From Puia sp. (GTDB lineage: Bacteria > Bacteroidota > Bacteroidia > Chitinophagales > Chitinophagaceae), in NCBI GenBank assembly GCA_036499285.1, contig DASYEB010000040.1:8151-72150 (forward strand): 64,000 bases of DNA. The letters are read 5' to 3'. Position numbers and translations under genes: made by a program. Below, piece by piece: positions 9,524 to 62,470 of this stretch (position 1 is its first letter; the number at the start of each line of letters is the position of its first letter). A model generated the notes under the pieces. That model was given only the letters and a program-made list of their open reading frames with translations. It was not told where the DNA came from and ran no database searches.

Positions 9524-10231
9524 TCATTTGTAGATCCTGTCCAGGACTTCCTGACGGTGTTCGCGGGAGATGGGGATAAGCTTGCCGTCAATTTCAACAC
9601 AGTTGCCATCGATCATGCTCACTTTGTCGATCGCTATCGTATACGAACGGTGGACGCGGACAAATTTATCGGCGGGCAGCTTATCGGTAATGTCAGTCAG
9701 CGATTGATAGCTTATCCAGGCCTGGCTGGGTGTTTTTACCCGGATATAGTCTTTCAGGCTTTCGATGTACAGGATATCGTTGACGAGGACTTTTACGAAC
9801 TTTCTGTCCACTTTAAGAAAGAGATAGTCGTTGCCGGCTGGCTTGTCCTTTTCTTCTTTTTTGGGTGCAGGCTGACTAAGTTTCACTACTTTTTCCAGCG
9901 CTTTCATGAACCGGGGGAAGGAGATGGGCTTGACAAGGTAATCGATGACTTCCAGTTCAAAGCCTTCCACAGCATAATCCCGGTAGGCGGTGGTAATAAT
10001 GATGCGCGGCGGATCTTTAACGCTTTTCAGAAATTCAAGCCCCGAAAGAAGAGGCATTTCAATGTCGAGGAAGATGAGATCATAGGGTTTGGCTTGCAGG
10101 GCCTGGAAGGCTTCGACGGCGTTCTCACAACGGGTGATGTTACGGGCGTCGAGCCGTTGAAGATAGTTCTCGATCACATCGATGGCGAGAGGTTCGTCAT
10201 CCACGATCATATAGTTGAGGGACCTCAGCAT
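9524..10231 (-). CDS. LytR/AlgR-family response regulator (REC + LytTR)
   Basis: IVDDEPLA, LIFLDIEMP (phospho-Asp), FTTAY-like ITTAY, DYLVKP, and LytTR motifs YIESLKDY and FVRVHRSY. Confidence 0.96.
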   Translation of the reverse strand: MLRSLNYMIVDDEPLAIDVIENYLQRLDARNITRCENAVEAFQALQAKPYDLIFLDIEMPLLSGLEFLKSVKDPPRIIITTAYRDYAVEGFELEVIDYLVKPISFPRFMKALEKVVKLSQPAPKKEEKDKPAGNDYLFLKVDRKFVKVLVNDILYIESLKDYIRVKTPSQAWISYQSLTDITDKLPADKFVRVHRSYTIAIDKVSMIDGNCVEIDGKLIPISREHRQEVLDRIYK

Positions 10232-49923: not shown

Positions 49924-51699
49924 TCAGACATCGGAGCGGGTCTCTTCTTTTTGGTGACGCCACATTTCCTGGAAGATAGGGTTGTGGTCGCGAAGGTCTT
50001 CAAAGCTGCCTTCCGCAACGATGCCGCCCTGGTGAAGGATGTAGACATAGTCGAAACGGGCGAGCAGGTGCAGGCGGTGGATGGATGAGATAATAGCCTT
50101 GTCAGAGAAGGCTTTGAAGAGGCCTTCGTATATCAGCGCTTCAGTGCGGGGGTCGACGCTGCTGGTAGGTTCGTCGAGAAGGATCAGGTCACTGTCACGG
50201 GCGGCGAGAATACCACGCGCCAGCGCAAGCCGTTGTTTCTGACCACCGGAAAGGTTGACGCCCTTTTCCCGGATGTCCGATTGCAGTCCCAGGGGCAGCT
50301 GGTGGATGACTTCTGTTAAATGGGCGCTGTTGCAGACCTGGCGGATTTCCTCTTCGGAGAAAGGAAGTCCAAGGGTGATGTTATAAGCAAGAGTGTTCTC
50401 GAATATTTCCGGTTCCTGGGGGAAAAGAGTGACGGTTTCGTTGAGCTGATCGAGGGATTCGGTATCCCCATCCACCCGGAGTGTGAAACCCGGTTCAGGA
50501 ATATAGAGGCCGCGCAGCAGGGCCAGAAGAGTACTTTTCCCGCTGCCGCTTTCCCCGACAAGGGCTATCCGCTGCCCACGACGGATGGTCAGGTGAAGGT
50601 CGTGCAGACTTTGGGCGCGACGGGTCGTATCATATGATTCATTGTAGGTGAAATTCAGCCGGCTTATATCGATGGTTCGCCAGTTGGCAGGAAGAGCGTC
50701 GGGGCGGTCCGCGCGGTGTTGTTCCGCATAGGCCTCGCTGATGACAGAGGCAGTCTGGACATAGGTATTGAATTGTACGATGTCTGTATATTGCCAGGCG
50801 ATGTCCTGGAATACACTGGTGAACTGGTTGACATAGCCCAGCAGGGTAACAAGGCTTCCCACAAGGAAGAGCTTGTCCGGGGTCCAGTGCTGAAAGACAT
50901 ACCCGAGCGTAATGGTTGCATAGATACAGACGATAAGCATTTCGGCACAAAACCACTTCCATTCATTGATCAGCGCACTCTTACGAAAAGGGCTGAAGAT
51001 ATGGCTCACCTTATTCATCAGACCCGACTCCATGCTTTTTTCCAGCCGCAGAGTAATAACGGTCATTATATTGGAAAGGCTGTCAAACAGGGTGGCGGAA
51101 ACTGTATGTTCTCTTTCGTTGACCTCATCCAGCGCCTTTATAAAAGGTTTATCAAAATTCCGGATGATAAAAATAGTAAAGACGCCCATACAGATCGCAA
51201 TGCTTCCATACAGGGGTGAAAAGTATAACATGGCGGTGACGGACACAAAGAATTTACCCAGGGCATAGACATACAGGAACCCGCGGTCGAAGAATTCACG
51301 GAGAGCCTCATATGCTTTACGAACGCGGTTGATAGTGGCGCCACTATGGTGTTCCTGCTGCCATTTTACGGGGAGATGCAGCACCTGGTGATATTTTTCC
51401 TGCAGGAAATTGCGGCTGAGGTGAAAGGCCAGCGAACGTTCCATGATCCGGGCAGGGCCATGAAAACACCACTGAAGAAATTTTATCACAATATAACCGG
51501 CAGCATAACGCATCACATGACGCGGGATATTTGCCGGGTCCTGCACGATCCTGTCGATAAACCAGCCTAAGAGTATGGGATTGAGAGAGTAGGCCAGGTT
51601 TGCCAAAATAAACAGGCAATATACCAGCACATATTTTTTCCTCTCCTTACGGGCATAACGCCAGGCAGTACGAAGCAGAGAGATATAAGGATTGGCCAT
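49924..51699 (-). CDS. Fused ABC exporter (TMD + NBD)
   Basis: Several TM helices, GESGSGKST, LSGGQKQR, LLDEPT, HRL switch. ATG at 51699 preferred. Confidence 0.92.
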   Translation of the reverse strand: MANPYISLLRTAWRYARKERKKYVLVYCLFILANLAYSLNPILLGWFIDRIVQDPANIPRHVMRYAAGYIVIKFLQWCFHGPARIMERSLAFHLSRNFLQEKYHQVLHLPVKWQQEHHSGATINRVRKAYEALREFFDRGFLYVYALGKFFVSVTAMLYFSPLYGSIAICMGVFTIFIIRNFDKPFIKALDEVNEREHTVSATLFDSLSNIMTVITLRLEKSMESGLMNKVSHIFSPFRKSALINEWKWFCAEMLIVCIYATITLGYVFQHWTPDKLFLVGSLVTLLGYVNQFTSVFQDIAWQYTDIVQFNTYVQTASVISEAYAEQHRADRPDALPANWRTIDISRLNFTYNESYDTTRRAQSLHDLHLTIRRGQRIALVGESGSGKSTLLALLRGLYIPEPGFTLRVDGDTESLDQLNETVTLFPQEPEIFENTLAYNITLGLPFSEEEIRQVCNSAHLTEVIHQLPLGLQSDIREKGVNLSGGQKQRLALARGILAARDSDLILLDEPTSSVDPRTEALIYEGLFKAFSDKAIISSIHRLHLLARFDYVYILHQGGIVAEGSFEDLRDHNPIFQEMWRHQKEETRSDV

Positions 51700-51753
51700 C
51701 GAAGCGAATTTGTGACGGCTGCCGGCAACCGGCGTCACCGGCCCGCAAATTTA

Positions 51754-53058
51754 CTAAAATGACTCGTTCAGGTTCAGGAAAAATCCCTTGTTGCCAAATT
51801 TCCCAAATGCGTAGTCCAGCGCCAGGTTTGTGCGCGTAGCCTTATTGAAAAGCACGCGCAGGCCGCCGCCGTAGCCCGGCTGAAATACCTGGAATATTTT
51901 GGTGCCGTGGTCATCATTACCGGTTTGCAGATTTCCGAAAACTACGCCGCTGATAAATTTATTGGCCAGGATAGGAAATCGTAATTCCGCTTCCGTGTCG
52001 TTGAATTGCGTCCCTTTAAAGTATTGGGCCGTATATCCCCTGCCGCTTCGATAGGTTCCGTCTCTGGCCGTGCCGGGTAGTTCAAGAAAGGGTATCGACC
52101 CGCCGAGAAGGTACGAACCCCAGTTCCAAAATGCAAGTACTGTCTCCGGGCTGGCAGTCGATAAGCTAAAGTATTTCCTGAAGTCAGAGGTCAGCTGCGC
52201 CGAGTTCTTTGTACTTCCTATCCAGGTCTGGTTGACCCGGATGCCGGCATCAAAGTAGATCCCTTTGTAGGGTCGGTTTGGATTGTCACGGGAGATGTAT
52301 TCCACATTAAAGAGAAAGCCGTTTGCAGAATAACGATTCTGTGGAAATCCATTCCGGTTGTTGTAGACGCTGGAAGGGGTCGCATTATCGACCGTATCGG
52401 ACAGAGTTATCTGCCTCCTGATCTCAAAGGACATGCCTGCTCCGACAAAAAAATTCTTTCCCACTTTCTTATAGACCTTTTCCCTGATATTGTAATAATG
52501 GGAGTGGATCGGGTAGGCCTTATGTGTAGGATCCGCCAGTACAGAATCTGCGGCGGTCCCACCCTTGATCTTGTTGCCGATGCCAAAACCAAAGTCGGGC
52601 GTTACCGTCTTTGCAGCCACGAGGTTACCCTGGAAATTCCACTTGTTGCCAGGGGTAAACAGGTTATGATTCAAATAAAAATAAATAATCCCTTTAGTGG
52701 TAATAGAAGCAGATGTCGCCGCAACTGAAAAGAGAGTGTTAGGATCATTGCCCAGTCTCCTGCCTGCTACAGCCTTGATCCCCAGCTGCCCCCCGATAGT
52801 GGGATTTGCGGCAACGTTGGGCACAACTGTGATACCCGACTTATTATGTAAAGTATCTGCCTTCTTTTTAGGGTGAAGGATATTCCGCGTCAGATCCCCA
52901 AAATCATATTGCCCGCGGGTGTTCTCAGCCAGCTTTTGGGCTTTTAACGATTTGACACGCAAGGAATCAGCTTTCAGAGAATCGACCGGGACCTGGCTGT
53001 ATGCAACTCCATGTACGACAACAATTAATAGTAAAAATAAACTCCATCTAATGCTCAT
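51754..53058 (-). CDS. BamA/TamA-like (surface antigen) outer-membrane barrel without POTRA domains
   Basis: Signal peptide; GRGY...FKG, EAELRF, GGGLRVLFNK...LALDYAFG and C-terminal NLNESF. Confidence 0.7.
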   Translation of the reverse strand: MSIRWSLFLLLIVVVHGVAYSQVPVDSLKADSLRVKSLKAQKLAENTRGQYDFGDLTRNILHPKKKADTLHNKSGITVVPNVAANPTIGGQLGIKAVAGRRLGNDPNTLFSVAATSASITTKGIIYFYLNHNLFTPGNKWNFQGNLVAAKTVTPDFGFGIGNKIKGGTAADSVLADPTHKAYPIHSHYYNIREKVYKKVGKNFFVGAGMSFEIRRQITLSDTVDNATPSSVYNNRNGFPQNRYSANGFLFNVEYISRDNPNRPYKGIYFDAGIRVNQTWIGSTKNSAQLTSDFRKYFSLSTASPETVLAFWNWGSYLLGGSIPFLELPGTARDGTYRSGRGYTAQYFKGTQFNDTEAELRFPILANKFISGVVFGNLQTGNDDHGTKIFQVFQPGYGGGLRVLFNKATRTNLALDYAFGKFGNKGFFLNLNESF

Positions 53059-53222: not shown

Positions 53223-54437
53223 TTATACCCCAGATTGGGGAAGGGAAAGGATCGGCAGGGTAAAATAGAAGGAGGAGCCGGCCGTTTCATTCTTTTCAGC
53301 CCAGATAGCCCCTTTGTGTTCCCGTACTATGCCGGAGGTAATATAAAGCCCCATACCAAATCCGCTGTATTTGTCGGTAACGGTCTCTTCGCGAAAATAT
53401 TTATCAAAGATCCGGTTGATATTCTGTTTTGATATGCCGATTCCCTGGTCACAGACGCAAACGGTGAGGTCATCGGCATTGGAAAAGCATTTGATATCGA
53501 TGCTCGTATCAGGATCCGAGTATTTGGCGGCATTGTTGATCAGATTGGTCAGGACCTGTTCGATGCGCAGGATATCGATGGTGACCATCACTTCTCCGGG
53601 GCAGGGCAGCCAGGAAAGCCGGTGTGAAGGGACCAGGTGTTCCAGGATGGGCATAACTCCGGTCATATAGGTGTTCCAGTCCAGTTCCTGCATATTGTAG
53701 TCGAGCTTCCCGGATTCGATCTTGGAAATGTCCAGCAGCTGGATTATCAATGTGTGTAGCTTATGCACCTGGTGGTCTATCTTTTCCAGGTAATGATGCA
53801 CATTCCCGGAAGCATCCATTGAACTGTCCCGTAAGGCCAGCTTGGTAAAAGCCATGATGGAGGTCAGCGGGGTCTTCAGCTCATGGCTGGCGACGGAAAT
53901 GAATTCGTTCTTTTTTTCATCCAGCAGGCGGCTGTGTTTTAGTGCCTCATCCTTTTCTACTGACTGTTGGTTCAAAAGGAGGTTGCGTACCTTCAGCTTT
54001 TCGTATGGAGTGGTCGGCTGAATGGTGCGGAAGAATTCTGATGCTTCGGCGACCTTGCCCGGCGTAATCTTCAGCGATCGGGGAATCCCTATGCTTATAC
54101 AGATTGTAGCCGCTTCATTGTTTCTGTCAAAGGAGAATTCCGGCACGAGAAGCTGGGCATATTTCAATCCTTCTTCCGAAGGCCGGATGTCGATGTCCGG
54201 GGGGAAATTTATGCGGGCGATAAGAGAAAATTTGCCATCGGCTTTTTCCATGCCGATACTAAGCCATCCAGTATCCGTTTTATCGATGACTACCCGGCTG
54301 ATCTCCGCTGTAGCAGTTGCAATGGTTGCCTGCGTAGACAGTGTGAGGAAAAAGAATTGCGCCACACTGATCATGCGCTTGTGCGCTACCACTATGTCCA
54401 TTTCATTCTCCAGTGAAACCTGAGTGATCTCTGTCAT
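53223..54437 (-). CDS. Soluble histidine kinase with N-terminal degenerate RsbT-like domain
   Basis: FISVASHELKTPLT H-box, NLINNAAKYS N-box, DQGIGI, GFGMGL; no TM segment; N-terminus aligns with the RsbT two genes upstream. Confidence 0.9.
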   Translation of the reverse strand: MTEITQVSLENEMDIVVAHKRMISVAQFFFLTLSTQATIATATAEISRVVIDKTDTGWLSIGMEKADGKFSLIARINFPPDIDIRPSEEGLKYAQLLVPEFSFDRNNEAATICISIGIPRSLKITPGKVAEASEFFRTIQPTTPYEKLKVRNLLLNQQSVEKDEALKHSRLLDEKKNEFISVASHELKTPLTSIMAFTKLALRDSSMDASGNVHHYLEKIDHQVHKLHTLIIQLLDISKIESGKLDYNMQELDWNTYMTGVMPILEHLVPSHRLSWLPCPGEVMVTIDILRIEQVLTNLINNAAKYSDPDTSIDIKCFSNADDLTVCVCDQGIGISKQNINRIFDKYFREETVTDKYSGFGMGLYITSGIVREHKGAIWAEKNETAGSSFYFTLPILSLPQSGV

Positions 54438-54439
54438 GA

Positions 54440-55450
54440 TTAAACCGATTTACACACTAAAACGGAGGTATCATCTGTTCCCCGGCTAAATTCTTTGTAA
54501 AGAGCCGAAGCAATTATCATTCCATCGTGCTGCATAAGCATCGGGAATTTTGAAATATCCCATCTTGACTTAATGCCATCAGAGCAGGCGATGAACTGCG
54601 GGAATTCTTCCTGTGACATCAGCTGCTCATTCATTGTGCCGGGGATATTATAACCGATGATACCATTATAAGATACATGATTCCTTACATTCAATGCCCC
54701 CATCCATCGGGCGGCAATATTACCCACACCTGTCGTTCGCCAGGTACGCGCCTCGCGGTTGTAAAAAACAACGAGTCCGACGATCCCCCTGGTTTTTCTG
54801 ATCTGGCTGTGGATATAGCGGATCGTTTCGGTAGGGCTTTCTTCGGTACATACCGTAAATGCCGCACAGGCTTCTCTTACCGCTGTATTCGCATCCGGAC
54901 CATGCCCGAGTCCATCTGCTACCAGGATCCGGAATCCTTCTTCCGTCTCTTCGAGACAAAAGCCATCCCCGCTGACTTGCTCTCCACGTTTTGGCACATT
55001 AATACCGCGGCATTCCAGCCTTCTCTTTTTAAACAGTGCTTGCTCTGCCTTATACACCCGGGCGACCACGATCGTCCCCCAGTCCTTTACTGAATATACG
55101 TCAAACAGATCAGAAAGTCTTTTGATGCTACCCAGTCCATGCCCAAGGGTTGCCGTAGAAGAATAACCATCTGACAGCACCCGGCCGATATCCGGAATTC
55201 CTGGTCCCTGGTCAAGGCCGATGATCTCGACATATGAACCGCCGGCATCGCTACCGATGCCAAACAGCAACTCCCCGCCTTTTGCATACTTGTTCAGGTT
55301 GGAAGTGATCTCGGAAACGATGATGTCTATTTTACCGACCTTTACTTCATCGAAGCCGACAGAAGTCGCGGCCGCGTGAATATCCTTTTTGATCAATGAA
55401 AAATAACTCCTGTCGTCTGCACGGAAGCTTTTGTAAAACGTACTAACCAT
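54440..55450 (-). CDS. RsbT-like ATP-binding domain fused to PP2C/SpoIIE phosphatase (RsbX-like)
   Basis: SEITSN, DQGPGI, GHGLG in the N-terminal half; SGDG, VADGLGHG, CSDG, DD PP2C motifs in the C-terminal half. Confidence 0.88.
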   Translation of the reverse strand: MVSTFYKSFRADDRSYFSLIKKDIHAAATSVGFDEVKVGKIDIIVSEITSNLNKYAKGGELLFGIGSDAGGSYVEIIGLDQGPGIPDIGRVLSDGYSSTATLGHGLGSIKRLSDLFDVYSVKDWGTIVVARVYKAEQALFKKRRLECRGINVPKRGEQVSGDGFCLEETEEGFRILVADGLGHGPDANTAVREACAAFTVCTEESPTETIRYIHSQIRKTRGIVGLVVFYNREARTWRTTGVGNIAARWMGALNVRNHVSYNGIIGYNIPGTMNEQLMSQEEFPQFIACSDGIKSRWDISKFPMLMQHDGMIIASALYKEFSRGTDDTSVLVCKSV

Positions 55451-55856
55451 TAGCCCACTTTATAATTGTTACGACAGTTCCTTTATTTATTTCGCTGGTT
55501 ATGGTAAAGTCATTGACCAGTCTTTTTGCACCGGGCAGGCCAAGACCCAGGCTTTTACCCGTGGAATACCCGTCTTTCATAGCAAGCTGGATATCGCTGA
55601 TGCCCGGACCAGAGTCTCTAAACACCAGCCGGATACCATTTTCCCTGCCCTTGGAAACGACCTCTATTGTTATATTTCCTCCGTCTGCATATCTAAGCAT
55701 ATTCCGCACCAGCTCGCTCGCAGCGGTGATCAGCTTCGTTTGATTGACCAGTCCCATTTTTATCTTCTGGGCAAATTCTTTCACACGATTTCGGAACAGG
55801 ATAACATCCTGTTCTTTATTAATAACCACGAGATCTTTAGACAGAGATAGTATCAT
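55443..55856 (-). CDS. rsbT: Stressosome Ser/Thr kinase RsbT
   Basis: ITAASELVRN, DSGPGI, GYSTGKSLGLGLPGAKRL; follows rsbS. Confidence 0.92.
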   Translation of the reverse strand: MILSLSKDLVVINKEQDVILFRNRVKEFAQKIKMGLVNQTKLITAASELVRNMLRYADGGNITIEVVSKGRENGIRLVFRDSGPGISDIQLAMKDGYSTGKSLGLGLPGAKRLVNDFTITSEINKGTVVTIIKWANG

Positions 55857-56244
55857 CTTCTTCGTCGGTTATTTCCCCTTCTTCGCCGAGGGCTATTTTT
55901 GAACGTAAAAGATCCATTCCTTTTTCAACATTGAGCGCAGTGTGTACTCCTTTCAGGGGGAGTCCAAGCTCGACCAGTGTGATCGCTACAGCAGGTTGCA
56001 TACCGACTACTACAGTTTCGGCATCGAGGATCCTGGACATATTGGCAATATTGCCAATGATACGACCCATAAAAGAGTCGACAATGCTCACTGCAGAGAT
56101 ATCGATCAATACGCCTTTTGCGTCCGTTTGGCTGACCATCTGGACCAGGTCGGCCTCCAGGTTTAGTGCAAGCCGGTCGTAGAGGTCCACCTGGATAGTC
56201 ACCAACAGGAATGGGCCCATTCTCAGGATTGGAATTTTGTCCAT
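55837..56244 (-). CDS. rsbS: Stressosome STAS protein RsbS
   Basis: IPILRMG, LIDISAVSIVDSF (phospho-Ser site), VVGMQPAVAITLVELG. Confidence 0.92.
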   Translation of the reverse strand: MDKIPILRMGPFLLVTIQVDLYDRLALNLEADLVQMVSQTDAKGVLIDISAVSIVDSFMGRIIGNIANMSRILDAETVVVGMQPAVAITLVELGLPLKGVHTALNVEKGMDLLRSKIALGEEGEITDEEDDTISV

Positions 56245-56271
56245 CGCTAAAAGAGATTTTTATACAGGTAT

Positions 56272-57141
56272 TTATTGATTCAAATTACTGGACGATGCAA
56301 CTTTTCTGACCTGCAGGTTCAAATTATTAAAAGCATAACGCAAAGCGTTTGCCAAAGTGGCCTTGGTGATGATACCCGACAGGTCGATACCCAGGTGCAC
56401 GATCGTCTGAGCAATTTCAGGCCGGATGCCGCTGATTATGCATTCCGCACCCATCAGGCGGGTGGCGCTGACCGTCTTGATCAGATGCTGCGCAACCAGC
56501 GAGTCGACGGCAGGTACCCCTGAAATATCCAGTATGGTAATGCTGCTCCCTGTGGCTACTATTTCGTTGAGCAGACTTTCCATAATGACCTGCGTGCGCG
56601 AGCTGTCAAGAGTGCCGATGATCGGAAGCGCAAGAATGCCTTCCCATAGACGGATGACCGGCGTGGAGATCTCGGCCATTTCATCGGTCTGACGAAGGAT
56701 AACCTCTTCCCTTCCTTTTATGAAGGTTTCGAAACTGCTGATCACAAAGTGGTCAACTAAACGATTGATCTTCAGGCTTTCCTCATATAAAGCCTTGAAG
56801 TCATCCTTCACCTCAGCCTGCAGCCAGGACAATATTGCTTCTTTAAGACTGATGACGAACACGCCGGTCTCACGTGGACTGAAGCCCTGACGTGCCCGGA
56901 TCATGGCAATGCCCGACAGGATCTCGAGCACGGGTTCGAAGGAGGCGGAGGACGGATCGTTGAGATTCTCAGGTGTAAGGGTTTGCAGCAGGATGTCGAC
57001 GAGCTCCTCTGACTGAGCCCTCAGGTCTTCATTGCTGACGAGGTCTTCTCTTAATCCGTCACTGGCGAGCTGATTCTGCATCCAGCTTTCGAATAGAGAT
57101 TTCTTCTTGGATCTTAAGATCTTTGTAATGTCAAGTGCCAT
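56272..57141 (-). CDS. rsbR: Stressosome STAS protein RsbR with N-terminal RsbRD_N-like helical domain
   Basis: ISTPVIRLWEG, LPIIGTLDS, LDISGVPAVDSLVAQHL, ISGIRPEIAQTIV. Confidence 0.92.
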   Translation of the reverse strand: MALDITKILRSKKKSLFESWMQNQLASDGLREDLVSNEDLRAQSEELVDILLQTLTPENLNDPSSASFEPVLEILSGIAMIRARQGFSPRETGVFVISLKEAILSWLQAEVKDDFKALYEESLKINRLVDHFVISSFETFIKGREEVILRQTDEMAEISTPVIRLWEGILALPIIGTLDSSRTQVIMESLLNEIVATGSSITILDISGVPAVDSLVAQHLIKTVSATRLMGAECIISGIRPEIAQTIVHLGIDLSGIITKATLANALRYAFNNLNLQVRKVASSSNLNQ

Positions 57142-57286: not shown

Positions 57287-57628
57287 ATGACCTACTCCAC
57301 CGAATTATTAAAAGGAACACTAAAGACAATTATACTGAAGTTATTGACAGACAATAAAAAAATGTATGGTTATGAGATCACGCAAAAGGTAAAAGAGCTG
57401 ACAACAGATAAGATCCAGATCACAGAAGGAGCATTGTACCCTACCCTCCATGCACTGGAGGCCGGGGGATTTGTGACAACCGAAACGGAGTTCATCGGCA
57501 AACGGGTGCGGAAGTATTACAGCTTAAGTCCGACCGGCAGGACAAAAGCAAAGGAAAAAGTAAAAGAGCTGGCAAGCTTTATCGAGACGATGGCTTCTCT
57601 TTTGGACATAAAAACAAAAATGGCCTAA
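57287..57628 (+). CDS. PadR-family transcriptional regulator
   Basis: LLKGTL, MYGYEI, ITEGALYPTLHALE, RKYYSLSPTG. Confidence 0.92.
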   Translation: MTYSTELLKGTLKTIILKLLTDNKKMYGYEITQKVKELTTDKIQITEGALYPTLHALEAGGFVTTETEFIGKRVRKYYSLSPTGRTKAKEKVKELASFIETMASLLDIKTKMA

Positions 57629-58143
57629 TGTATTCTATCAGCGACCAGCAGATCGATTTTATTCTCCATGATCTTGCCGCCAATGGCATTGAGACGGAGA
57701 GCCTTCAGCAGGATCTGCTCGATCATATCTGCACGATCATTGAACGGAACCTCGAAGTAGGCGGCGACTTTGACGGCTTTTATGCGGCTACGGTCAAAAC
57801 CTTTTACAAAAAGGAGTTGCGGGAAATAGAAGAAGAGACCAGCTTCCTGCTGACAATGGGTCATCGGCTGGTATTGAGCCGGAATATATTTTTCCTCTTG
57901 TTGTTTATATTATTTGGAGGTCCTTTTGTGGCCTATCTTGCTTCAGCGGCATACAGCCCGGGTCACTCCGGATGGAATATTCCTGCGGAGGTATGGAGGG
58001 CTACCCTGGTCTTCTCCCTTTTTCCGATGCTGGTGCTGCTGGTCCTGTTTCTGACACCCGATCGCCTCGACCCGGTGATCCCCTGGAAGTCGAAGATCCT
58101 GATCGGATTAAACCCTATTATACAAATTGTCTCCGTAAGCTGA
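57628..58143 (+). CDS. PadR-associated hypothetical membrane protein
   Basis: TAATG coupling with the PadR gene; N-terminal DLLDHIC helix then two TM segments. Confidence 0.7.
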   Translation: MYSISDQQIDFILHDLAANGIETESLQQDLLDHICTIIERNLEVGGDFDGFYAATVKTFYKKELREIEEETSFLLTMGHRLVLSRNIFFLLLFILFGGPFVAYLASAAYSPGHSGWNIPAEVWRATLVFSLFPMLVLLVLFLTPDRLDPVIPWKSKILIGLNPIIQIVSVS

Positions 58144-58952
58144 TGAAGAAATTGCCCCCCGTTCTCCTTTGTATCCTCGCGTTTGCCTGTACAAGTACAC
58201 CCAAAGAAGCCCCGCCACAGGTTAAGATCATGACGGAGAGCATTATTCCCTTTACGGTAACGGATTCATTCCCGCACGACACCACATCTTTTACTGAAGG
58301 CCTGCTGGTATACGACGGACAGCTGTTTGAGAGTACAGGACATACAGATTCCTATCCTGTTTCAAGGTCTTTGTTTGGAGTGGTAGACAAAAAGACAGGC
58401 AGGATCAATGTCGGATCCGAGATAAAAGACCCTAAATATTTTGGAGAAGGCATCGTTATTTTAAAGGATAAAATTTATCAGCTGACAGATACCAACCGGG
58501 TAGGTTTTGTTTATGACGCAAAGACATACCGGCGACTTTCGGAATTTCATTATGCCGGTGATGGCTGGGCGTTTACGACAAATGGCACCAGCCTGATCAT
58601 GAGTAGTGGCTCCAGTTCCGTTCTCTATCGCGACCCTCTGAGCTTCAGGACGGTAAAGGTGCTGTCTGTAACCTCGCCGGATGGCACGCCAGTTGGAAAT
58701 ATCAACGAGCTGGAGATGATCAACGGGTATCTCTACGCTAATCAATGGCTTACCAATTATATTCTGAAGATCGATACGGCCAGTGGGAGAATAGTAGGCA
58801 AACTGGATCTGTCGCCGCTGAAGAACGCAGCCATGGCGAAATATCCCCGAGCCGCCGAGACAAATGGGATTGCCTACGATTCCGCGTTGAACAGGATTTA
58901 TGTGACCGGCAAATTATGGCCGACCATCTACGAAATAAAATTCGACCATTGA
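58143..58952 (+). CDS. Glutaminyl-peptide cyclotransferase (beta-propeller type), lipoprotein
   Basis: Lipobox AFAC from ATG 58143 (TGATG coupling); FTEGL, FESTG, FGEGI, GWAFT, NELE, NGIAYD, VTGKLWP. Confidence 0.9.
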   Translation: MKKLPPVLLCILAFACTSTPKEAPPQVKIMTESIIPFTVTDSFPHDTTSFTEGLLVYDGQLFESTGHTDSYPVSRSLFGVVDKKTGRINVGSEIKDPKYFGEGIVILKDKIYQLTDTNRVGFVYDAKTYRRLSEFHYAGDGWAFTTNGTSLIMSSGSSSVLYRDPLSFRTVKVLSVTSPDGTPVGNINELEMINGYLYANQWLTNYILKIDTASGRIVGKLDLSPLKNAAMAKYPRAAETNGIAYDSALNRIYVTGKLWPTIYEIKFDH

Positions 58953-58956
58953 TCAC

Positions 58957-61900
58957 TTAGAATTGCGGACTATCACCACCCGCCGAATTTACAAATTCGA
59001 TAAGCCTGCGATAGACCGGGTTATTGGATAAGATAGCAGGATTACCCGTTATAAACAATTGTTTTCTGGCTCTTGTAAGTGCAACATTTAACTTTCTGTC
59101 TATCAGAATACCCTCATCCTCCATGTTTCTGGCAAGGAAATTCAGCTGGTAGATATAATTCACGCTAAAAGAATAGATGATAATATCCCGCTGAGATCCC
59201 TGGAAACGTTCGACCGTGTCGATCATGATCTTGTCCAGGACGTCGATGTTCAGCTGATGCAGCTGCCGCCTGATCAGGGCGATCTGGCTTCGGTAAGGAG
59301 CTATGATGCCGATACTCTTTTCCGGTTCAAATAAGAGGTTATTCCTTTGATATAAAGCATAGATGCTCTCGACCAGTTTTACGGCTATTCTCGCCTCATG
59401 TGAGTTGGTTTTATTATTATCGGACTCGCTTTTCTGTGAGGGTAAAAAAACCAGGCGTTTTGTAGCGATGAGCTTTTGTAAAGGATCCTGTGCATCGTAG
59501 GACAAAAATTCGAGAGAGGCAGCCTGGTGTGGAAGCGGTACCGGCTCAAGACGGCCCTCATAGAATTGCCTGTTCGAGAATTCAGCTACTTCCGGGTGCA
59601 TACGCCCCTGTTTGTACAACATTCCCCAGGCAGGCGAACTTTTATCCGTCTTATGCAGGTTATATAACCGTTCGAATAATGAATTCCGGCGATCGGGCAG
59701 TCCGATGGCATTCAGGGTGGGAGAATCCGTAGCAGAGTCCTGTTCTTTTTGCAGGACTACGGCAGGAAGCTGTTTGTTATCCCCGATGAGAATAAATTTT
59801 GAAATGGCATTCCGTCCTTCCGGATCTTTCGCGGATAGAACACCCAGAAGATGCGGTTCCAGGATCTGGGAGGCTTCATCGATGATCGCTACCTGGAAAT
59901 GTTTGAGCCGGAACAGCTCCATTTTGCCGGATATGGAGGATACAGTTCCGACGAAAATACGATACCCTTTAATTTTGATGCGAACATCCGCGCGTGTCCG
60001 GCAATCGGCGATGAGGCAGTCCAATAACCTTCCTTTATGCTTTTCGTCACAGGAAAGCGTATTCCCGATCCGGACATAAGGCGGCTGGCTGTCTATGCTA
60101 TCCAGCGCATCACAGATCTCGTCTACAGCCCTATTGGTATAGGAAAGCAGGAGTATGTTTATTTCCGGCGCGGAATAGAACTCATCTACCATTGCTTTCA
60201 GCGCCTTGGAGGTTTTGCCCGTGCCAGGCGGCCCCACCAGTAAAAAATAGTCTTTAGCCTGTTTGGCTTTCAGAACAATTTCATCGATCTCTTTACTGCC
60301 GTGTGTCCTTGCAAGTCTTATGGTGCTGTCAAACTGCAGCGGTCGCTGGCTTAACAAAAGATCCTTCCTGTCTGTTCTTGCCTGTAAGAAAAGAAATAAC
60401 CCCTTGAACATCCAGTTGTAGGAAGAATCCAGGAAATCGGGCTCAATGGCAAATGTGCTCCGGTCGGAAAAGATGTTCCGGTTACGTTGTTTAAAGCGCA
60501 GCCGGACAGTGACTTCCTGCTGATCGATCTGTTCTATCGCACCCTTAAAGATCTGCTTATTGGTGACCACATCTGACCCGCTGTTTCTTTCATATAAATT
60601 CACCACTTCTCCTTTTCTGAAATTTGGCAAGGCCTCTACTTCAGCCTGATCCGTTATGACAAAAGTTATTTTGGGGGCTGCGTCATCTGCCTTATTTCCA
60701 CCCGGTTTTATTTTCAGATCTGTCAGGATCTCCCCCGCCTCTATCTTATCATGGAGGTCGTTTTGCCATAAACCGGCGACACCCCTGTTACCAGGGCTAT
60801 CCTTATCCCCATCCCCTATTTTGGATACAAACAGCTCCCGGGTCAAAAAAGTATAAAAGGAATGGAAATACTCCCGTTCGAGCAGCGAACTATGAGCAAA
60901 GACGTCTGAGAACCTCTTAATATCCGGGATCACATAATTCTCCAGGAAAGAAGAGTTTACCTTTTCAAGGATCAGCCTCGCCGGTACTATTTGCTTAAAT
61001 ACCGTTTCGGAGTTGGAGCCGTTGATGCTCTTGGCAACAAAATGCTCTATAAGCACGATCTCATTACGCTTGTTTATTATATGCTTTAGCCTTGACAGCG
61101 CCGGTTTTTCGAATCTTAAATTATCGGTCGATGGTTTTGAGTATAGTACATATACGTTCAGGTTCTCCTTGTGTCTGTCACCTTCGTGAAGATTGTACAG
61201 GACGGCTAAATAGTAAAGGAAAAGCTGCGTACCATGGTTCTTTCCTATCCGGGTTGGGTCTGTATAAGGATAAGGAGGCTTGCCTGATTTTAACTCGATG
61301 ATATTAAAGTAACCATTCTCCGGCTGGTATTGAAAGAAGTCAAGCCGGCCCTGTACGCCGAAGTACTCACAAAAGAAAGAAGGTTCGACGGTCGCCTTAT
61401 CTTTGTTTATCCTGAAGGTGTTCTCAGTAAAAGTATGCTGGACCGTATTCCTGATATTCAGGTGCTGTCTTTCTGTTTCCTCTCTATATTTTTCCTCGTC
61501 AAAGTCGATGCAGGTTGAATATTCGAAAGGATAGGACCTGAAGGCATTGCCTCTTATCATATCCGCATCGATAGCATCTGCCGCCTGATTGAAGATCTGC
61601 TCATCCAGGCACATATTGGCAAAGTCACCGATCCGGAAATGCATTTTATTCTCCGGTATGGTAAGCCGGGAGATAGTATAGTTCAGCTGGTGATCTCCAT
61701 GTTCTTTATAACATTCTGCAAGGTTGCTGATGTCGATGAGATAGTCCGGTTCCAGCACCACAAATTCAGTGTAAAAGGCGCCTTCGGATTCGGTGACATC
61801 GATCAGGTTCACAGATGCACCAGCCCAGATATGTTTAAATGTCGACTCGAATTCCCGGTTGCCATAGTAGCCCTGAAAGATCTCTGCATCGACATTGGTC

Positions 61901-62406
61901 TTAACTTTATATAGCTCATCATTCGCAAATTCCTCAAATTCGCAAAACAGGGTATCGGCTGTGATGTCTCTGACAAAGGCCCTGATCCGCTTGAACCTTT
62001 TGCCGGTTAGTTTTTCTTTTGGAGCTATGACGTCGTTTTCAGGGAAGACCCGTATTAGTTCCGGGGGGATGGCTGTGTCATAGAAGTAGCCGATAGTTTC
62101 GCTGATGACTTTCAGGTCCTGCAGATAGTCGGGTGTCGACGGCTGCCATTGTCCATGCTGTATTTTATTGGCGTTGATCCGGAATGTATTCAGCTGGTAG
62201 GTTCTTTTTCGATCCAGTCCTTTCTTTTTACAGGCATAATTAAGCCGGGAGAAGAGGTTGGAAAACTGGACAGGTTCACCGGCGGTGATCTCTTTGCAGA
62301 CCCTTTCCAGGAGCCAGCGCAGTTTGGAGTATTTGCTATTCAGGCTGACCCGCTCCGAATGATATTCTATTATCTCATTAAAGAACTCAATGCCTGTTAC
62401 ATTCAT
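58957..62406 (-). CDS. Dna2/Nam7-like PD-(D/E)xK nuclease-SF1B helicase fusion
   Basis: PDYLIDIS, QGRLD, IIELKSGK nuclease motifs; [41 protein letters not shown] helicase motifs. Start 62406 or 62424. Confidence 0.88.
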   Translation of the reverse strand: MNVTGIEFFNEIIEYHSERVSLNSKYSKLRWLLERVCKEITAGEPVQFSNLFSRLNYACKKKGLDRKRTYQLNTFRINANKIQHGQWQPSTPDYLQDLKVISETIGYFYDTAIPPELIRVFPENDVIAPKEKLTGKRFKRIRAFVRDITADTLFCEFEEFANDELYKVKTNVDAEIFQGYYGNREFESTFKHIWAGASVNLIDVTESEGAFYTEFVVLEPDYLIDISNLAECYKEHGDHQLNYTISRLTIPENKMHFRIGDFANMCLDEQIFNQAADAIDADMIRGNAFRSYPFEYSTCIDFDEEKYREETERQHLNIRNTVQHTFTENTFRINKDKATVEPSFFCEYFGVQGRLDFFQYQPENGYFNIIELKSGKPPYPYTDPTRIGKNHGTQLFLYYLAVLYNLHEGDRHKENLNVYVLYSKPSTDNLRFEKPALSRLKHIINKRNEIVLIEHFVAKSINGSNSETVFKQIVPARLILEKVNSSFLENYVIPDIKRFSDVFAHSSLLEREYFHSFYTFLTRELFVSKIGDGDKDSPGNRGVAGLWQNDLHDKIEAGEILTDLKIKPGGNKADDAAPKITFVITDQAEVEALPNFRKGEVVNLYERNSGSDVVTNKQIFKGAIEQIDQQEVTVRLRFKQRNRNIFSDRSTFAIEPDFLDSSYNWMFKGLFLFLQARTDRKDLLLSQRPLQFDSTIRLARTHGSKEIDEIVLKAKQAKDYFLLVGPPGTGKTSKALKAMVDEFYSAPEINILLLSYTNRAVDEICDALDSIDSQPPYVRIGNTLSCDEKHKGRLLDCLIADCRTRADVRIKIKGYRIFVGTVSSISGKMELFRLKHFQVAIIDEASQILEPHLLGVLSAKDPEGRNAISKFILIGDNKQLPAVVLQKEQDSATDSPTLNAIGLPDRRNSLFERLYNLHKTDKSSPAWGMLYKQGRMHPEVAEFSNRQFYEGRLEPVPLPHQAASLEFLSYDAQDPLQKLIATKRLVFLPSQKSESDNNKTNSHEARIAVKLVESIYALYQRNNLLFEPEKSIGIIAPYRSQIALIRRQLHQLNIDVLDKIMIDTVERFQGSQRDIIIYSFSVNYIYQLNFLARNMEDEGILIDRKLNVALTRARKQLFITGNPAILSNNPVYRRLIEFVNSAGGDSPQF

Positions 62407-62470
62407 AGGAACATTTGGATGCAAAATTATTCATTTTTAATCTTAAATTACGACGTAATAATAATTATAC

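Follow-up and report, generated by a model that had tools for sequence, protein, structure and literature searches.

How can a stressosome drive a histidine kinase that has no RsbU_N domain? Stressosomes are widespread, but the output side has been worked out only for cases of RsbT binding to RsbU_N, the sigma B pathway of Bacillus and the Moorella diguanylate cyclase being examples. Most downstream proteins, the kinases of most Gram-negative loci among them, lack this domain, and Heinz et al. describe their coupling to the stressosome as unexplained (PMC9237108). The question is raised here by a locus within a 64,000-nucleotide stretch of DNA (hereafter the window) from a soil member of the Bacteroidota, family Chitinophagaceae, where five minus-strand open reading frames (ORFs; 57141-53223) follow one another in the order rsbR-rsbS-rsbT-TX-HK, TX being a fused kinase-phosphatase and HK a histidine kinase. 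A preliminary description had read the operon as rsbR-rsbS-rsbT followed by an RsbT-like+PP2C fusion and an RsbT-like+HisKA+HATPase fusion; all five ORFs were recovered with those boundaries and matching domains, and the three RsbT-like domains it had counted (RsbT, TX residues 1 to 135, and HK residues 1 to 138) were all traced to the RsbT-type fold. Our comparisons indicate that the N-terminal domain of HK is a dead paralogue of RsbT, and the linkage of such kinases to stressosome genes in most checkable loci suggests how stressosomes connect to two-component signalling.

Pairwise BLASTP is blind to the likeness between the HK N-terminus and RsbT: it returned no alignment with RsbT and just a spurious 29-residue match with TX. 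Residues 1 to 150 of HK match no Pfam or NCBIfam entry, and a sequence-profile search of the PDB with the N-terminal domain gave noise (E values of 0.6 to 1). Comparison of profiles with hhalign, by contrast, aligned 19 HK N-terminal domains with 16 RsbT sequences along 106 columns (probability 95.6%, E = 1.2e-8), and the register was the one that had been proposed by eye in the preliminary description, so the resemblance claimed there is real. The window sequence taken singly scores 17% against the RsbT profile, while 30 shuffled versions of it reach at most 0.6%; in the Pelobium orthologue, RsbT matches the HK N-terminal domain directly (tblastn, 29% identity over 120 residues, E = 3e-11). 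An AlphaFold2 (AF2) model of residues 1 to 150 has a predicted local distance difference test score (pLDDT) of 95.2, and Foldseek matched it, each time at probability 1.0, to SpoIIAB, RsbW, and UsfX (TM-scores of about 0.52 to 0.60 normalised to the query) and to the RsbW domain of Rv1364c. The region thus models as a GHKL/RsbT fold, as had been anticipated, and this structural match is independent of the sequence match.

The domain belongs to a sizeable family. An exhaustive HMMER search collected 210 representative clusters at E<=1e-10, in all of which a histidine kinase begins with the domain, and 85 full-length relatives share this placement; a cluster look-up yielded the name "ATP-binding protein" and nothing more specific. 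Word-indexed protein searches returned almost entirely short metagenomic fragments, which supplied alignment rows and little taxonomic information. The 85 full-length members fall into two classes. Intact members have the motifs ExxRN, DxGxGI, and GxGxG and a lid some 31 residues long, and the Pfam HATPase_c_2 threshold is passed by several of those tested; degenerate members, which include the window kinase, have a lid segment of 16 to 18 residues, no DxGxG, and usually no Asn. In hhalign comparisons the degenerate class matches the intact class (99.9%, E = 1e-35) and the intact class matches RsbT (99.9%, E = 2e-32) and, with an E value of 9e-19, the TX kinase domain; the degenerate class and the TX N-terminal domain match at 2% probability. 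By these measures the HK N-terminal domain lies nearer to RsbT than to the kinase domain of TX, and it represents the decayed extreme of a family in which other members retain all catalytic motifs. The preliminary description had missed these intact-motif relatives, along with a conserved single-domain receiver in related loci that is described below.

The decay in HK is specific. The N-box Asn is replaced by Val49, the DxGxG box is gone, and roughly 13 to 15 residues of the lid are deleted (18 remain versus 31 in RsbT). Loss of the N-box Asn and the glycine boxes had been claimed beforehand; it holds, and extends to most of the lid, yet one glycine of the G2 box (G90) survives, as do E45 (the N-box Glu) and R48 (the Arg before the lost Asn). 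E45, R48, and the surface loop LENEMD (residues 9 to 14), which corresponds to KEQD of RsbT, are invariant among HK N-terminal domains, the RsbT-type N-terminal E-x-D motif is kept, and alignment columns average 61% identity over the families Chitinophagaceae, Sphingobacteriaceae, and Flavobacteriaceae. Because the Asn, the DxGxG box, and the lid are lost, the domain can no longer be a kinase. Profile comparison, the chain through the intact class, the AF2 model with its Foldseek matches, and the loss of motifs together argue that it is a degenerate, catalytically dead RsbT paralogue, that is, a pseudokinase.

Kinases with this domain recur beside stressosome genes. We examined 18 full-length orthologues from reference genomes of the three Bacteroidota families named above, and in 15 of them rsbR-rsbS-rsbT-TX lies directly upstream in the same order. 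Culturable carriers of the kinase include Pedobacter sp. BAL39 (L013), Pedobacter ginsengiterrae (L014), and Mucilaginibacter aquaedulcis (L011). All six distant family members with enough flanking sequence (L028, L033, L035-37, L038/39, L040, and L030) likewise adjoin rsbR/rsbS, so that the co-occurrence of the fusion with stressosome genes, a survey of which the preliminary description had suggested, is seen in both sets. The distant kinases vary in architecture: those of L028 and L040 combine a degenerate N-terminal domain with PAS, that of L033 combines an intact one with PAS, and that of L035-37 is a hybrid kinase. The genes rsbT and TX are also present in these distant loci except L030, where the kinase stands ahead of rsbR-rsbS and the contig ends before the rsbT position. 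Adjacency in 15 of 18 orthologues and in six distant members argues that the link between HK and the stressosome is not accidental. The exceptions are three orthologues of the Puia clade (L006:4821-5978, L007:8001-9182, and L015:1321-2529), whose N-terminal domains are conserved as elsewhere (59 to 65% identity to the window) and which keep the receiver gene and downstream outer-membrane-like and ATP-binding cassette (ABC) genes; the L006 kinase is short of about 18 residues of the linker helix.

The remainder of HK has the features expected of a soluble, cytoplasmic HisKA-type sensor histidine kinase. Its phospho-acceptor, His185 (codon 53883-53885, motif SHELKTPL), is invariant in 32 family members, the N, G1, F, and G2 boxes are intact, and residues N298, N302, D330, G332, G334, F344, G359, G361, and G363 are nearly invariant in the same set. 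Pfam finds no PAS domain in HK, and its hydropathy predicts no transmembrane segment (Kyte-Doolittle(19) peaks at 1.39), which agrees with the earlier statement that the kinase has neither type of input. Nor does Pfam match RsbU_N in HK at E<=0.1, and the N-terminal domain is modelled as an alpha/beta GHKL fold. The pseudo-RsbT domain is the sole input domain of HK. Histidine kinases usually relay what an N-terminal domain senses into their core through a helix continuous with the first DHp helix, and the full-length AF2 model (pLDDT 89.6) contains one helix, residues 144 to 205, that runs from the linker into the DHp helix bearing His185.

The three genes at the head of the operon are predicted to encode a complete minimal stressosome, with RsbR as sensor and scaffold, RsbS as scaffold, and RsbT as switch kinase. 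RsbR joins an N-terminal sensor domain of the non-haem-globin-type RsbRD_N (PF14361, 8.8e-25) to a C-terminal STAS domain (PF01740, 2.1e-14), and its Ser180 and Ser214 align with both phospho-threonine positions of Listeria RsbR, which we take to be T175 and T209 in our own numbering. It matches the Listeria RsbR structure 7b0u at an E value of 4.9e-35. RsbS is a single STAS domain by Pfam and matches Listeria RsbS (6qcm) at 8.3e-30; its Ser57 (codon 56074-56076, motif VDSF) aligns with the serine of the Listeria IDSF motif, the phospho-site Ser56 of Listeria RsbS (PMC9237128). Outside its STAS domain RsbS carries an acidic tail of about 18 residues (residues 118 to 135; 55837-55890, minus strand; ALGEEGEITDEEDDTISV), which is not conserved, as tblastn alignments of orthologues span about 117 to 119 of the 135 residues; the end of rsbS overlaps the start of rsbT by 20 nucleotides. 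An RsbS query found no STAS region beyond RsbR and RsbS in the related loci, the window itself having not been searched with that query. RsbT matches HATPase_c (5.9e-14) and HATPase_c_2 (3.9e-8) in Pfam and SpoIIAB at 4e-6, and the residues of its N-box (E48, N52), G1 box (D81-G83-G85), and G2 box (G104-G106) are invariant in 16 orthologues, as would befit a GHKL serine kinase with intact boxes.

TX departs from the norm of the RsbX family through its fusion to a kinase domain. The N-terminal domain is recognised by Pfam as HATPase_c_2 (9.5e-7) and is 32% identical to RsbT (BLASTP, E = 5e-15); its catalytic boxes E..TSNL, D.GPG, and G.GLGS are invariant in 16 sequences, and it has an N-terminal motif of its own, A.DRS. 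The C-terminal half matches Pfam SpoIIE weakly (0.1), shows the PP2C motifs GD...DGLGHG...DDTSV, and over residues 153 to 332 matches the Moorella stressosome phosphatase MtX (3zt9) at 1.2e-15 and B. subtilis RsbX (3w40) at 8e-4. Judged by its motifs, the kinase domain is apparently active, and TX may both write and erase the phosphorylation of RsbS/RsbR. The long form is common to the Bacteroidota and the distant loci examined: in every distant stressosome-kinase locus with the gene on the contig (all except L030) the phosphatase has about 340 to 354 residues, and Pfam sees both kinase and PP2C parts in four of these five; in the fifth (L035-37) it gives SpoIIE alone, yet the N, G1, and G2 motifs are visible. 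It is not the form found in the Vibrio aquimaris locus (196 residues), to which we return.

What might a dead RsbT domain do on a stressosome-linked kinase? We see an even prospect that it docks HK on the STAS domains of RsbS and RsbR and thereby switches the kinase with the phosphorylation state of the stressosome, the docking being what we infer. The pseudo-RsbT domain would have kept the partner-binding role of RsbT-type kinases and would sit on unphosphorylated RsbS/RsbR STAS domains, probably beside bound RsbT, so that the HK dimer would be held on the stressosome in one signalling state. On stress sensed by RsbR, RsbT would phosphorylate Ser57 of RsbS and Ser180 and Ser214 of RsbR, perhaps with a contribution from the TX kinase domain; phosphorylated STAS domains would lose their hold on GHKL domains, and the pseudo-RsbT domain would be released or re-seated. 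That change would pass along the linker helix and switch autophosphorylation of His185, from which phosphate would move to a single-domain receiver whose gene is adjacent in many relatives and would lie elsewhere in this genome. By dephosphorylating the STAS domains, TX would return the system to its starting state.

STAS domains are known substrates of the RsbT/RsbW/SpoIIAB-type kinase family, and because the intact-motif members of the HK family presumably still phosphorylate STAS domains, binding to STAS is likely the ancestral function of the domain. In the published docking model of the Listeria stressosome each RsbT site is formed by one RsbS and two neighbouring RsbT molecules, with RsbT-RsbT contacts (PMC9237128), and an RsbT-shaped domain could slot into an RsbT layer of this type. 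The likely ancestral substrate and this model are our reasons for favouring docking on STAS.

Several points nevertheless weigh against docking of this kind. In SpoIIAB-SpoIIAA structures the segment corresponding to the deleted lid contributes to the surface with which a SpoIIAB-type kinase meets its STAS partner, and its loss could weaken STAS binding rather than keep it. Whether the docked kinase is in the on or the off state is a guess. The three exceptional Puia-clade loci show no rsbRST-TX upstream within 4.8 kb (L006), 8 kb (L007), and 1.3 kb (L015) of the kinase; either their stressosome genes lie elsewhere in the genome or the domain works without them. Finally, no cognate receiver gene was found near the operon or elsewhere in the window.

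We regard as rather unlikely a second arrangement, in which the pseudo-RsbT domain is a receptor for free RsbT, and formation of a GHKL-GHKL heterodimer stiffens the linker helices and switches HK on. The HK N-terminal domain is specifically RsbT-like and not TX-like, which suits such pairing, and anti-sigma-type GHKL kinases such as SpoIIAB and RsbW are generally known to dimerise. HK has no RsbU_N domain, so some other receptor for RsbT would be required. The RsbT-RsbT contacts of the Listeria docking model are in keeping with the idea (PMC9237128), as is the long helix entering DHp, which fits the model that RsbT rigidifies the linker of RsbU on binding its N-terminal domain, a mechanism whose extension to histidine kinases has been proposed (PMC12143880). 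The intact-motif relatives, however, indicate a STAS substrate and not RsbT as the ancestral partner, RsbT heterodimers are hypothetical, and in V. vulnificus an interaction of VvRsbT with the downstream protein VvD1 was not detected (PMC9237108), the presence of an HK-type domain on VvD1 being unchecked.

It is improbable, in our estimation, that the HK N-terminal domain is a decayed relic or a homodimerisation module, with coupling achieved otherwise (for example, through Ser/Thr phosphorylation by RsbT or TX) or with nothing beyond co-transcription joining the genes. Such a fate would agree with the loss of every catalytic motif and with the retention of the domain in L006, L007, and L015 without adjacent stressosome genes, and for downstream kinases without RsbU_N a transient phosphorylation that depends on RsbT has been suggested by Heinz et al. 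(PMC9237108). But a relic would not keep 61% column identity and the invariant LENEMD, E45, and R48 across three families, nor fold at a pLDDT of 95; the domain is also the only input domain of HK, is joined to DHp by a continuous helix, and recurs at the N-terminus in all 85 full-length relatives. That the five genes are neighbours by chance, with a fortuitous or compositional likeness to RsbT, is scarcely credible: the empty pairwise BLASTP result and the 17% score of the single window sequence would allow it, but the profile match at 1e-8, the chain through intact relatives (1e-35 and 2e-32), the independent structural match, the shuffled controls at or below 0.6 to 2.4%, and a gene order shared by 15 of 18 Bacteroidota loci and by distant metagenomic relatives, with gene overlaps of 20 and 8 nucleotides, all oppose it.

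If HK is switched by docking on the stressosome, where does its phosphate go? The preliminary description had stated that the window holds no response regulator. One is present, a REC+LytTR protein at 9524-10231 (minus strand), which is the sole receiver domain in the window and lies about 43 kb from the operon, though it is part of another system: a LytS-type kinase gene (His_kinase, PF06580; 10396-11322, minus strand) adjoins it, and for this reason we rejected it as the partner of HK. In nine related loci one conserved gene for a single-domain receiver of 126 to 131 residues stands beside the operon. It is divergent upstream of rsbR in L002, L004, L005 (4812-5192, minus strand), L008, and L009, divergent upstream of the kinase where rsbRST was not found, in L006 (4289-4684, minus strand), L007, and L015, and directly after the kinase in the Mucilaginibacter locus L011 (9212-9556, plus strand). 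More distant receiver genes occur in L010, L016, and L017. Among the distant loci, single-domain receivers immediately follow the kinase in L028, L038/39, and L040, and in L038/39 a REC-GGDEF-EAL gene comes next. The window and its closest relative, L001, have a PadR-family gene in the divergent position instead. We infer that the partner of HK is likely a stand-alone receiver encoded elsewhere in this genome.

Coordinates of the operon and of the domains discussed above are collected in the table. The intergenic spacings from rsbR to HK (+27, -20, -8, and +2 nucleotides) would fit a single operon. A promoter and terminator scan stayed at background level (9 sites versus 6.9 expected; 6 versus 4.3), Bacteroidota promoters being outside the model of the scan.

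Genes and domains of the rsbR-rsbS-rsbT-TX-HK operon, in window coordinates
Feature	Position	Strand	Description
RsbR	57141-56272	minus	289 aa; RsbRD_N + STAS
RsbS	56244-55837	minus	135 aa; STAS
RsbT	55856-55443	minus	137 aa; HATPase_c / HATPase_c_2
TX	55450-54440	minus	336 aa; HATPase_c_2 + weak SpoIIE match
TX N-terminal domain	55046..55450	minus	aa 1-135; second RsbT-like GHKL kinase domain
TX C-terminal domain	54440..55003	minus	aa 150-336; RsbX-type PP2C
HK	54437-53223	minus	404 aa; HisKA 176-243, HATPase_c 288-396
HK pseudo-RsbT domain	54024..54437	minus	aa 1-138; predicted GHKL fold
HK helical linker	53913..54008	minus	aa 144-175; from AF2 model
HisKA / DHp	53709..53912	minus	aa 176-243; Pfam HisKA (PF00512), 1e-16
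HK catalytic ATP-binding domain	53250..53576	minus	aa 288-396; HATPase_c (PF02518), 4.7e-24

The surrounding window is ordinary chromosomal DNA, with genes for SecA, UvrA, AspRS, malic enzyme, and alpha-2-macroglobulin. The nearest public locus belongs to a metagenome-assembled genome of Puia sp., whose HK is 88% identical to the window HK. In a search of sequencing runs, one soil metagenome run contained 99% of the sampled words of the region; the matching runs were soil metagenome DNA, and that search found no RNA run. The stretch at 49924-53058 (minus strand), beginning 164 nucleotides after HK, encodes a 434-residue protein that has a signal-peptide-like N-terminus, matches nothing in Pfam, and is probably an outer-membrane barrel; an ABC exporter (ABC_membrane + ABC_tran) comes next. 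We considered these outer-membrane-like and ABC genes as members of the module and rejected them; their synteny is confined to the Puia clade (L001-L007 and L015), so they are probably outside the conserved module. Elsewhere, 58957-62424 (minus strand) encodes a 1155-residue protein with a C-terminal superfamily-1 helicase region (AAA_11/AAA_12) and some 700 N-terminal residues without a Pfam match, and 24876-31193 (plus strand) encodes a 2105-residue bacterial alpha-2-macroglobulin (MG2, A2M, and bMG10 domains). Within 57628-58952 (plus strand), a glutamine cyclotransferase ORF (57972-58952) overlaps by 172 nucleotides a preceding 171-residue membrane-like ORF, which itself comes after the PadR gene; the true start of the cyclotransferase is probably further downstream.

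We hold only tentatively, and with some doubt, the broader notion that RsbT-derived domains, live or dead, serve as a general docking handle that plugs effectors into the stressosome surface. In that case RsbT, the TX kinase domain, and the HK domain would compete or cooperate for STAS sites, and Ser/Thr phosphorylation of RsbS and RsbR would be read directly as His-Asp phosphotransfer, with neither a sigma factor nor RsbU_N in between. Vibrio-type stressosomes would use the same solution, with a hybrid kinase that would likewise begin with a degenerate RsbT-like domain, and this would explain how Gram-negative stressosomes talk to two-component systems. In any case, an RsbT-derived N-terminal domain in stressosome-linked kinases of Bacteroidota, uncultured lineages, and at least one Vibrio is a concrete, testable coupling element, and within the family there is a natural gradation between versions that are catalytically intact and versions that are dead. 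The presence of TX in place of a plain RsbX may alter the reset of the system. The value of these observations is mostly for bacterial signalling and for annotation, the degenerate domain being invisible to Pfam and NCBIfam.

Against the background of known systems, the earlier designation of this operon as an uncharacterised system was overstated. Modules of rsbRSTX with two-component or cyclic di-GMP outputs have been described since Pane-Farre 2005, according to the passages that cite that work in PMC9237108 and PMC10014275, and the rsbRSTX locus of V. vulnificus has been studied genetically and structurally (PMC9237108, PMC10014275). That rsbRSTX can have a two-component output is thus already known as a general idea; what appears to be new is the coupling domain of HK together with the fused kinase-phosphatase TX. 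In the literature searched we found no RsbT-like domain on an output kinase, no Bacteroidota stressosome, and no TX fusion, with the proviso that Pane-Farre 2005 or the 2017 review might show fused domains.

The operon shares with the Bacillus subtilis and Listeria stressosomes an RsbR of RsbRD_N+STAS architecture, the phospho-serine of RsbS, the intact boxes of RsbT, and an RsbX-type phosphatase. Unlike theirs, it lacks rsbU, rsbV, rsbW, and sigB (the window as a whole was not searched systematically for sigB or rsbV/W), its phosphatase bears an extra RsbT-like kinase domain, and its output is a histidine kinase instead of a PP2C phosphatase with RsbU_N. Among outputs that are coupled through RsbU_N, namely, B. 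subtilis RsbU, the Moorella diguanylate cyclase MtG, and the histidine kinases noted in proteobacterial stressosome operons, the coupling element is a four-helix RsbU_N bundle (PMC12143880), whereas the N-terminal domain of HK is an alpha/beta domain of the GHKL fold and a homologue of RsbT itself.

Similar in layout is the VvRsbRSTX-VvD1-VvD2 type of V. vulnificus, which has the same order of rsbR-rsbS-rsbT-phosphatase-sensor kinase, no sigma factor, and a presumed His-Asp output. The Vibrio RsbX, however, is a single-domain protein of 196 residues, and the Vibrio counterpart of HK is a large hybrid kinase (REC, REC, Hpt) with a REC-HD-GYP regulator after it, whereas HK is minimal, with pseudo-RsbT, HisKA, and HATPase domains only. 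The literature found lists no RsbT-like domain in Vibrio-type kinases. In V. aquimaris (L041:7953-10694; NZ_CP045351.1, ~967957-970698) the locus reads RsbR(PASx3-STAS)-RsbS-RsbT-RsbX(196 residues)-hybrid kinase-REC/HD-GYP, and Pfam recognises nothing in the first 179 residues of its kinase. Residues 33 to 139 of this one sequence match the RsbT profile in hhalign (95.5%, E = 1.6e-8; 30 shuffles, at most 2.4%), with a degenerate N-box, SEICHKM, so an RsbT-like device may be hidden in Vibrio-type kinases too. A protein search seeded with the N-terminus of this kinase gave one fragment and the plasmid collection gave the query alone, and the result therefore rests on a single sequence and its shuffles. 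On the Vibrio record P0253 seemed to be covered to 90%; this coverage joined two pieces, one starting inside rsbT and one in the kinase, and was not used as evidence.

The pseudo-RsbT domain has the same fold as the HATPase_c_2 proteins SpoIIAB, RsbW, and UsfX, and its family grades into members that pass the HATPase_c_2 threshold; it differs from them in being fused to a histidine kinase, in having lost the Asn, DxGxG, and lid, and in having no sigma factor partner in sight. For TX the parallels lie with SypE of Vibrio fischeri, which reportedly combines an RsbW-like kinase, REC, and PP2C, and with Rv1364c of M. tuberculosis (3ke6). SypE is paired with SypA (PMC10120452). Like SypE and Rv1364c, TX joins a GHKL serine kinase and a PP2C for a STAS partner in one polypeptide; unlike them, it places the kinase first and an RsbX-type PP2C second, has no REC, PAS, or STAS domain, and is encoded beside a separate RsbT in a stressosome operon.

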